The notes beneath the pieces are model-generated. The model was not told where the DNA came from, ran no database searches, and was given only the letters and a program-made list of their open reading frames with translations. A program made the position numbers and the translations under genes. Of a stretch of 15,058 bases of DNA, positions 6,180 through 7,146 are shown in pieces. How positions within the stretch are numbered: position 1 is the first letter of the stretch; each line of letters begins with the position of its first letter. The stretch is from assembly GCA_016840165.1 (NCBI GenBank), contig JAEOSU010000015.1, positions 1-15,058 on the forward strand, in the 5' to 3' direction. This stretch comes from Promethearchaeota archaeon (GTDB lineage: Archaea > Asgardarchaeota > Lokiarchaeia > Sigyniarchaeales > SOKP01).

Positions 6180-7146
6180 ATGGGAATTGGAAAAGGTTTT
6201 GGGAAGACCATACTATTTGGCGAAATTTATCTCCTACGTAAAGAATAAACGTCAACATTTTGTAGTTTATGGACTTCCAGCTATTGCATCTGCATTAGGG
6301 ACATATACAATAGCTCAAGTAAATGTTATAGAAGGTAATGGATGGACTGTCGATGATCAAAGACCAGCAACTCCTGGGTACAAGAAAGTAAAATATAAAG
6401 ATGCAATGCAATCCATTGAAAATGTGCTCAGTTATTTAAATATTAAAACTAATGATAACAGGCTTCAAATAGAATTCTCTGGAGACTTAGTAGCTGCAAG
6501 CGGCGTAGGTGCATCTGCTGCTCAATGTACCTCCTTAGCTCGCGCATTAAACGATACATTTAAAATTGACTTAGATGATGAACAGATAAATAATGCTGCT
6601 TATGAAGGTGAAAAAGCCTATCATGGAACGCCATCAGGTATAGATAATACAGCTTCGACCTATGGTGGTTTAATTTGGTTTGTTAAAAATTTGAGTGGTG
6701 GCAAGAACACTATGGAGCTCTTGAAATCTCCCATAAAAATACCTTTAGTAATTGGCAATACCGGTATAACCGCATCAACAACAGAGGTAGTGGCTGATGT
6801 ACGAAAATCAAAAGACAATGACCCCGTAAAATTTGAAAAAATCTTTAAAATATATAAGAATTTAGTAGAAGAGGCAAAACAAGCATTATTAGCAGGAGAT
6901 ATTAATATAATTGGTTCTTTACTTAATCAAAATCACAAATTATTACAAGAAATAAATGTATCGGGAGATTTGAATGATAAATTGGTGAAGATCGCTTTAG
7001 ATAACGGTGCTGTTGGAGCTAAAATGACGGGAACAGGAAGAGGAGGATTGATTATCGCTCTAGCGGAAAATCGTAATATTCAAGAACAAATTTCTAAAGC
7101 AATCATAAAAAAAGGATTTAATGCATGGAATACTAATATAGGATAA
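6180..7146 (+). CDS. mvk: Mevalonate kinase (GHMP family), split gene: join(6180..6224,6256..7146), 311 aa after removal of a 31-nt intron
   Basis: Exon 1 reads MGIGKGFGKTILFGE and exon 2 reads HFVVYGLPAIA..., rebuilding GHMP motif I (GKxILFGEHxVVYG). Also present: GDLVAASGVGASAA (motif II), HGTPSGIDN and AKMTGTGRGG (motif III). The ORF-track version starting at TTG 6187 has a non-homologous 23-aa N-terminus. Confidence 0.9.
6225..6255 (+). other. Putative archaeal bulge-helix-bulge (BHB) pre-mRNA intron, 31 nt (ATTTATCTCCTACGTAAAGAATAAACGTCAA)
   Basis: Central 4-bp helix GGCG(6219-6222)/CGUC(6250-6253) with 3-nt bulges AA^A(6223-6225) and AA^C(6254-6256). Intron stem UUUAU(6226-6230)/AUAAA(6245-6249). 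Cutting after the second bulge nucleotide on each strand removes exactly 6225-6255 and restores GGC GAA CAT (G-E-H). Confidence 0.85.

Follow-up and report, generated by a model that had tools for sequence, protein, structure and literature searches.

Can the mevalonate kinase gene of a Promethearchaeota archaeon be read as it stands in the DNA, and what is the role of the codons around its interruption? The stretch analysed here, called the window in the following, comprises 15,058 nucleotides (nt) of contig JAEOSU010000015.1 (assembly GCA_016840165.1), and the mevalonate kinase gene on its forward strand is split by an insert of 31 nt. Our reading, to which we give a probability of roughly 0.7, is that the insert represents an intron of the bulge-helix-bulge (BHB) type in the mevalonate kinase mRNA, and that the codons flanking it double as RNA structure under purifying selection which depends on the presence of the intron, a helix between the two exons most likely acting as a tether.

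A mevalonate kinase gene in two parts

The gene and its insert are arranged as follows:

6180..6224, + strand: exon 1 of mevalonate kinase, MGIGKGFGKTILFGE (from the translation; the last 8 residues are TIGR00549 profile positions 3-10)
6225..6255, + strand: predicted BHB-type intron, 31 nt (same site occupied in 50 orthologues)
6256..7146, + strand: exon 2 of mevalonate kinase (HFVVYG...), an open frame of 296 amino acids (aa)

The frame of exon 1 runs into a TAA stop at 6246-6248 inside the insert, which introduces a +1 frame shift, and the frame of exon 2 (HFVVYG to the protein end) begins at 6256. The cuts predicted from the BHB geometry take out exactly 31 nt and join GAA to CAT, which restores GKTILFGE|HFVVYG; the reading frame and the conserved GE|H junction are thus both recovered. 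An intron-less orthologue matches the TIGR00549 profile from position 3 and exon 2 alone from position 11. Because exon 2 alone is devoid of positions 3-10, exon 1 has to be regarded as part of the enzyme. Exon 2 is stop-free over 296 aa in all full-length orthologues. In the genome, which is 99.7% complete, this is the sole mevalonate kinase match, the second match being a 26%-identical GHMP kinase. The insert interrupts a conserved open reading frame (ORF), and its removal would be needed for a functional protein, as in the case of the cbf5-type pre-mRNA BHB introns. Two paralogues of the splicing endonuclease EndA (PF01974) and one RtcB are encoded in the genome. The longest plain ORF begins with TTG at 6187 in the frame of exon 2 and leads to a call of 319 aa with a wrong N-terminus and without GKTILFGE. 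Such genes get truncated by gene callers, and here it is the catalytic N-terminal motif that is lost.

Searches in the genus and in the family yielded 93 parsed orthologues, of which 50 bear the intron, 31 are close intron-less genes (GKTILFGE|HF without insert) and 12 are more distant intron-less genes. The 81 close orthologues represent one Asgard family. Unless other totals are given, codon counts cover 48 intron-bearing and 30 intron-less genes, and pairing counts are based on 49 distinct intron-bearing sequences. The insert site is identical in the 50 orthologues, with lengths of 31 nt (45 genes), 30 nt (4) and 28 nt (1).

Bulge-helix-bulge geometry

The splicing motif of archaeal pre-tRNAs and pre-rRNAs is known in the forms hBHBh′ and HBh′ (Marck and Grosjean 2003, as defined in bioRxiv 10.64898/2026.10.13.758758). 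At the mevalonate kinase locus the following elements can be assigned:

6218, + strand: U, wobble base of Phe TTT, pairs with A6257 beside the 3′ bulge (U-A in 49/49 sequences; codon counts below)
6219..6222, + strand: central helix, exon strand GGCG (C6221 is the wobble base of the Gly codon GGC; codon counts below)
6223..6225, + strand: 5′ bulge AAA, putative cut after 6224 (from the geometry; the GAA codon is complete if the cut follows the second base of the bulge)
6226..6249, + strand: intron hairpin h′ (6226-6232 pairs with 6242-6249; 7 base pairs (bp) in this genome)
6250..6253, + strand: central helix, intron strand CGUC, pairs with GGCG 6219-6222 (from fold and alignment)
6254..6256, + strand: 3′ bulge AAC, putative cut after 6255 (from the geometry; join GAA|CAT, giving ...GE|H...)

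The locus thus has a central helix, two 3-nt bulges on opposite strands with symmetric predicted cuts, and a hairpin h′ of at least 2 bp. An exon helix h, which comprises at least two contiguous pairs adjoining the 3′ bulge, is not present, as U6218-A6257 stands alone and the next positions are U-U. Because the exon helix adjoining the bulge is a single pair, the motif, as predicted here, classes as HBh′ plus a remote clamp.

In the intron-bearing alignment 85% of the cells of the central helix are paired. Its C-G pair is replaced by U-A in three sequences, where GGT goes with an A in the intron, and one G-U intermediate was also found. The outermost pair is a G-A mismatch in 30 of the 49 sequences, which leaves 3 bp. 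The hairpin h′ spans nine columns with 82% of cells paired, and five of these nine pairs have changed on both sides. The 30-nt and 28-nt introns retain the BHB geometry, their deletions falling in the hairpin. For this genome the central helix is predicted to form with a probability of 0.98, as opposed to 0.02 in synonymous resamples, mainly owing to GGC. A covariance model of the intron core, searched genome-wide, matched this locus alone (next match E 0.7), so that the intron cannot be recognised as a repeated sequence in the genome. An Rfam search returned nothing relevant.

A helix between the exons

The coding flanks also pair with each other. An earlier note on this DNA had proposed a long exon-exon stem consisting of GGAAG 6202-6206 with CUUCC 6274-6278, CCAU 6208-6211 with AUGG 6269-6272 and ACUAU 6212-6216 with GUAGU 6262-6266, in which the wobble bases G6203, G6206, C6209 and, towards the intron, C6221 lie opposite C6277, C6274, G6271 and G6251. 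These pairings are all present, and the minimum free energy (MFE) structure given by RNAfold for 6195-6285 contains every one of them. The codons of exon 1 that the note had pointed to are indeed rare in the window, which has 32.9% GC: GGG makes up 0.14, AAG 0.23, ACC 0.16 and GGC 0.09 of the respective synonymous sets. The parts of the stem are:

6202..6203, + strand: GG extension pairing with CC 6277-6278, lineage-specific (codon GGG, in 4/48 sequences; offsets an A-A mismatch)
6204..6211, + strand: conserved exon-exon helix, 5′ strand AAGACCAU (wobble bases G6206 and C6209)
6212..6216, + strand: middle segment ACUAU, pairs with GUAGU 6262-6266 (well formed here, partly in relatives)
6262..6266, + strand: middle segment GUAGU (one G-U pair with ACUAU; from alignment counts)
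6269..6276, + strand: conserved exon-exon helix, 3′ strand AUGGACUU (from alignment counts; A6273 opposite A6207 is a mismatch in this genome)
6277..6278, + strand: CC partner of the GG extension, bases 1-2 of a Pro codon (from sequence and alignment)

The helix 6204-6211/6269-6276, i.e. positions -21 to -14 of exon 1 and +14 to +21 of exon 2, is the longest exon-exon helix with at least 90% pairing among the intron-bearing genes. It begins 13 nt from each cut and is therefore placed symmetrically, beyond an internal loop of 6 x 11 nt. In the intron-bearing alignment, 96.7% of the cells of this distal helix are paired, 70% of those of ACUAU/GUAGU and 100% at U6218-A6257, compared to about 40% in slid controls. 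The ATA at codon -5, which belongs to the middle segment, has a weak link to the presence of the intron. The 8-bp helix, U6218-A6257 and the GGC of the central helix form the selected core, whereas G6203-C6277 is lineage-specific and ACUAU/GUAGU weakly conserved.

Where this genome has the A6273-A6207 mismatch, most relatives carry GGU at Gly +6. This genome and its nearest relatives combine GGA or GGG at Gly +6, and with it the mismatch to A6207, with GGG at Gly -8, and therefore the overall duplex energy stays at the level of the class (-14.9 kcal/mol in this genome, slightly stronger than the mean of -13.7 kcal/mol for the intron-bearing genes). This suggests that the total stability of the exon-exon duplex is under selection.

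Duplex energies were calculated for exon 1 (-24 to -7) and exon 2 (+2 to +24) as two strands, and such measures, specific to exon-exon pairing, replaced tests on the MFE of whole fragments, which were not significant. For this genome the duplex energy compares to -6.1±2.5 kcal/mol in synonymous resamples (z -3.5, p 0.004). The fold of 6195-6285, with an MFE of -18.3 kcal/mol, contains 18 exon-exon pairs, compared to 5.8±5.6 in the resamples (p 0.018).

Codon choice and the intron

If the flanking codons serve the RNA structure, their choice should depend on the intron. The comparison of the 50 intron-bearing with the 31 close intron-less orthologues supports the earlier note's proposal of selection on RNA structure in addition to the protein code, and ties this selection to the intron. 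Six codons differ between the two classes:

Lys -7, AAG: 45/48 intron-bearing, 10/30 intron-less
Thr -6, ACC or ACT: 47/48 intron-bearing, 8/30 intron-less
Phe -3, TTT: 48/48 intron-bearing, 12/30 intron-less
Gly -2, GGC: 45/48 intron-bearing, 3/30 intron-less
Gly +6, GGT: 44/48 intron-bearing, 6/30 intron-less
Leu +7, CTT: 44/48 intron-bearing, 6/30 intron-less

The AAG and GGC of the proposed stem are thus far from equally common in the intron-less orthologues. No class difference was found for Pro +8, Ala +9, Ile +10 and Val +3. The wobble base of the Thr codon in intron-bearing genes is C or U only, both of which are able to pair with G6271. In total, 7.75 of the 8 positions of the helix are paired in intron-bearing and 5.12 in intron-less genes.

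With the first 30 nt of exon 2 left out of the gene tree, at least 16 changes of intron state are needed, and well-supported branches force eight of them. The helix tracks the intron in all eight phylogenetically independent pairs on such branches (p ~0.008). When tested site by site, five of the six codons track the intron in 6.5-7.4 of the 8 independent pairs and almost never show the opposite (p ~0.016), while Phe -3 TTT does so in 4.5 and shows no difference in 3.5 (sign test p 0.06). The control codons do not track the intron significantly across the independent pairs.

The duplex energies lead to the same separation, with -13.7±1.7 kcal/mol for intron-bearing and -5.6±2.6 kcal/mol for intron-less genes. 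Each of the 50 intron-bearing genes does better than its synonymous resamples at p<=0.05 (median z -3.15), and the intron-less genes have a median z of +0.38. The GC content of the lineages is not the explanation, because the GC content at third codon positions outside the flanks is lower in the intron-bearing genes (0.21) than in the intron-less ones (0.24).

One intron-less gene, L087 (G073:C178), possesses the full clamp (AAG ACC ... GGT CTT; duplex energy -13.6 kcal/mol), although it has GGA in place of GGC. The gene is extended at the N-terminus and sits on a long branch, and its intron may have been lost recently and precisely.

Proposed mechanism and its alternatives

We propose that, while the intron is present, purifying selection would hold three sets of silent sites, namely the Gly codon GGC, the Phe codon TTT and the 8-bp helix AAG-ACY-AU/AU-GGU-CUU. 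GGC would form the 4-bp central helix with the intron, and the U of TTT would close the helix beside the 3′ bulge. The exon-exon helix, at about -14 kcal/mol as a duplex, would most likely stand in, at a distance, for the exon helix h of pre-tRNAs, i.e. the anticodon stem. EndA would then cut both bulges, after which the exon-exon helix would keep the halves of the mRNA together for ligation by RtcB. The sequences show the structure, its conservation along with the intron and its cost in codons, while cutting by EndA, joining by RtcB and the tether are inferred from them. A tether appears to be the most economical role because after the cuts this helix would be the sole substantial link besides the U-A pair and the weak middle segment.

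Several results weigh against this reading. Splicing of the insert is deduced from the DNA and from the comparison of orthologues. Upon replacing the clamp codons in silico by those of intron-less genes, the probability of the central helix was not lowered (0.43 and 0.47, 49 sequences); this equilibrium modelling gives no support to the suggestion of the earlier note that the stem presents the BHB. We dropped that role, since the predicted BHB is undiminished by removal of the clamp. The fold energy of 6195-6285 is not unusual when compared to dinucleotide shuffles (z -1.49, 22/200 as good), and the comparison with synonymous controls which the note had suggested was likewise not significant (2000 resamples with the intron fixed, z -1.22, p 0.12), as was the case in the 121-nt context 6180-6300 (z -0.40). 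The amino acids K-T-I and Y-G-L together with codon usage alone predict about 5.5 of the 8 core pairs (null mean 5.54), and the 7 of 8 pairs in this genome, with its A-A mismatch, reach p 0.12. RNAalifold did not recover the structure unaided from the 91-column alignment and returned a trivial local hairpin CCA/UGG. None of the 8 pairs of the exon-exon helix has changed on both sides in the intron-bearing alignment, a test of low power. This lack of covariation is to be expected, since one partner in each pair is a wobble base and the other is set by the amino acid; exon-exon pairing is suggested by the conserved complementarity, the contrast between the classes and the C/U-only pattern at Thr. 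Furthermore, unpaired wobbles of the flanks differ between the classes by 0.41, compared to a gene average of 0.28, so that some recombination or a further constraint at these sites would have to be allowed for. At least one intron-less gene, L063, has a rearranged 5′ region with a different upstream region and extra amino-acid changes, and therefore some recombination does occur.

The alternative which survives best accepts that the stem is selected together with the intron and assigns it to translation instead of to holding the exons: as long as the mRNA is unspliced, it would act as a brake or barrier to ribosomes, which would give splicing time or prevent a truncated peptide of 22 residues. 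The position of the helix 24-32 nt past the start codon (from codon 9), ahead of the stop at 6246-6248 in the intron, would suit such a role. The start of the gene abuts the stop of the upstream gene, so that ribosomes would arrive by coupling, and the modelling has the BHB forming without the helix. However, the helix would persist as a hairpin in the spliced mRNA and hinder the functional message too, and the symmetric spacing from the cuts fits a scaffold for the splice sites. We therefore consider control of translation unlikely, although it is the most serious competitor of the tether.

Selection or linkage

A second alternative does without selection on structure. The intron-bearing and intron-less 5′ ends could be two old recombining alleles, the flank codons simply travelling with the intron. 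The many changes of intron state on the gene tree fit this view, as do the flank distance between the classes, which is about 0.2 regardless of the distance in the remaining gene, the altered 5′ region of L063 and the slightly higher divergence of unpaired flank wobbles. Such linkage leaves unexplained, however, that among intron-bearing genes the 6 paired wobbles have a third-position identity of 0.85 and 8 neighbouring wobbles one of only 0.45 (0.53 elsewhere in the gene), that the intron hairpin varies freely and that the Thr wobble is restricted to C or U; in the intron-less class the third-position identities are 0.39 and 0.40. Hitch-hiking is insufficient because within the intron-bearing class paired wobbles are frozen and their neighbours vary freely. 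Over the 150 codon columns in which the amino acid is conserved, it is at the flank codons that this class has its largest entropy deficits.

In the twelve nearest pairs with one intron-bearing and one intron-less member, the difference is 0.74 at 7 constrained positions, 0.12 at the other flank positions and 0.28 at third positions elsewhere. Three of these pairs, in which the upstream DNA is collinear, show the same pattern and differ mainly at the constrained sites, and the collinearity argues against block replacement in them. In the other 9 of the 12 pairs the comparison of the upstream 150 nt, made at fixed offsets, met indels or a different gene order. Contrary to expectation, the clamp did not fade gradually as the distance to intron-bearing relatives grew (Spearman -0.39, the wrong direction), so either it decays fast or some blocks recombine. 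Taken together, paired silent sites evolve more slowly than unpaired ones, and only where the structure would be needed, i.e. with the intron present. We regard two travelling alleles as quite improbable.

Finally, that the complementarity is a by-product of K-T-I ... Y-G-L and chance, with the insert being a lesion or bypassed by the ribosome, and not spliced, is hardly credible. The number of pairs expected from amino acids and codon usage and the unremarkable total MFE would agree with it, but 50 species retain the insert at one site with an intact exon 2 of 296 aa, the shorter variants hold the BHB geometry, exon and intron show compensatory changes, and the codon pattern is absent from intron-less genes.

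Gene surroundings and further observations

The window contains an archaeal mevalonate-pathway cluster with genes for HMG-CoA synthase, HMG-CoA reductase, UbiD, both AcnX subunits, mevalonate kinase, isopentenyl-phosphate kinase and IDI-2. The gene order 5′ of mevalonate kinase varies within the genus: in L008, L015-L019 and L063 the gene of the small AcnX subunit does not precede it, as it does in the window. At the position aligned to the start codon (6180-6182), 7 orthologues with and 2 without the intron have ACG, and 17 with the intron have TTG; in these genes (L002-L005, L033, L034, L053 and others) the position directly follows the stop of the upstream gene.

A further silent site, Gly codon 4 (GGA AAA at 6189-6194 of the window), is GGA in 47/48 intron-bearing and 14/29 intron-less genes. 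It has the biggest entropy deficit among the 150 columns and tracks the intron in the independent pairs (5.7 same, 0 opposite). In a search for a partner of this GGA, neither a conserved helix with the ends of the intron nor one with exon 2 confined to intron-bearing genes was found.

CCA 6208-6210 and UGG 6218-6220 are invariant in 50/50 intron-bearing genes and could fold locally into a small hairpin, in competition with the clamp and the central helix; in the RNAalifold output this hairpin is the main prediction, alongside a 2-bp GG/CC pair in exon 2.

An Asgard-type mevalonate kinase with 71% identity was also found on a contig (L100, DATKTW010000113.1) of a metagenome-assembled genome deposited as 'Candidatus Nanopelagicaceae bacterium'. 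This contig is probably mis-binned.

Relation to known systems

In the literature searched, the cbf5 pre-mRNA intron of Crenarchaeota (Watanabe 2002; Yokobori 2009, PMC2738675) is the only documented case in which the tRNA endonuclease acts in splicing within a coding sequence of archaea, and nothing was found on mevalonate kinase introns or on synonymous constraint around such introns. The cbf5 paper (PMC2738675) reports no exon-exon clamp or constraint on synonymous sites; the terms 'exon-exon' and 'synonymous' have 0 occurrences in its text. Both introns are of the BHB type, lie within an archaeal protein-coding gene at a catalytic motif and show lineage-specific loss, but they belong to different genes and different lineages, the one described here being from Asgard archaea.

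With the BHB of pre-tRNAs and pre-rRNAs the mevalonate kinase motif shares the 4-bp central helix, the two opposite 3-nt bulges with the cuts, and h′. As in the anticodon stem of pre-tRNAs, a helix between the exons closes the whole. The substrate, in contrast, is the coding sequence of an mRNA, in which an exon helix must sit in silent codon positions, and the 8-bp helix is remote, with one U-A pair adjoining the bulge.

A similar solution is found in the unconventionally spliced XBP1 and HAC1 mRNAs, for which Peschek et al. (2015) reportedly described exon-holding stems, the 'RNA zipper'; Ire1 cuts these mRNAs, and RtcB or Trl1 joins them. In that system, a protein endonuclease cuts two mRNA loops and exon pairing retains the halves for a ligase of the tRNA type, as proposed here, but nuclease and recognition motif are different and XBP1 and HAC1 are eukaryotic and stress-regulated. 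No homology is implied.

A recent preprint describes heavily interrupted tRNA genes and a two-subunit EndA in Asgard archaea. In the present genome aragorn detected 13 tRNA genes, 8 of them with introns of 15-36 nt, in addition to one dubious call of 461 nt. These numbers are in line with the preprint, and presumably most tRNA genes of the genome are too interrupted to be recognised.

Significance

The known BHB splicing motif would appear here in a new form, in which an exon clamp, as a plausible role of the helix, is written in the silent codons of an mRNA. Only through such splicing would the organism be able to read its sole mevalonate kinase gene, needed for a step of membrane-lipid synthesis. 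An unusually clean natural experiment is provided by the orthologues, 50 with and 31 without the intron; in it the splice structure costs freedom at silent sites, and this cost can be measured as rare G/C-ending codons in a genome with 33% GC. A clamp built from codons is also a signature by which further mRNA introns could be found from sequence only, and the question what joins the mRNA halves between cleavage by the endonuclease and ligation by RtcB becomes testable.

Somewhat tentatively, and with the odds slightly against it, codon-built exon clamps might be a general requirement of hidden tRNA-type introns of about 30 nt in protein-coding genes of Asgard archaea. If this is true, a mimic of the anticodon arm in silent sites would let the enzymes of tRNA splicing process mRNAs, and the closest prokaryotic relatives of eukaryotes would splice messages routinely, perhaps in a regulated manner, with codon usage marking where.

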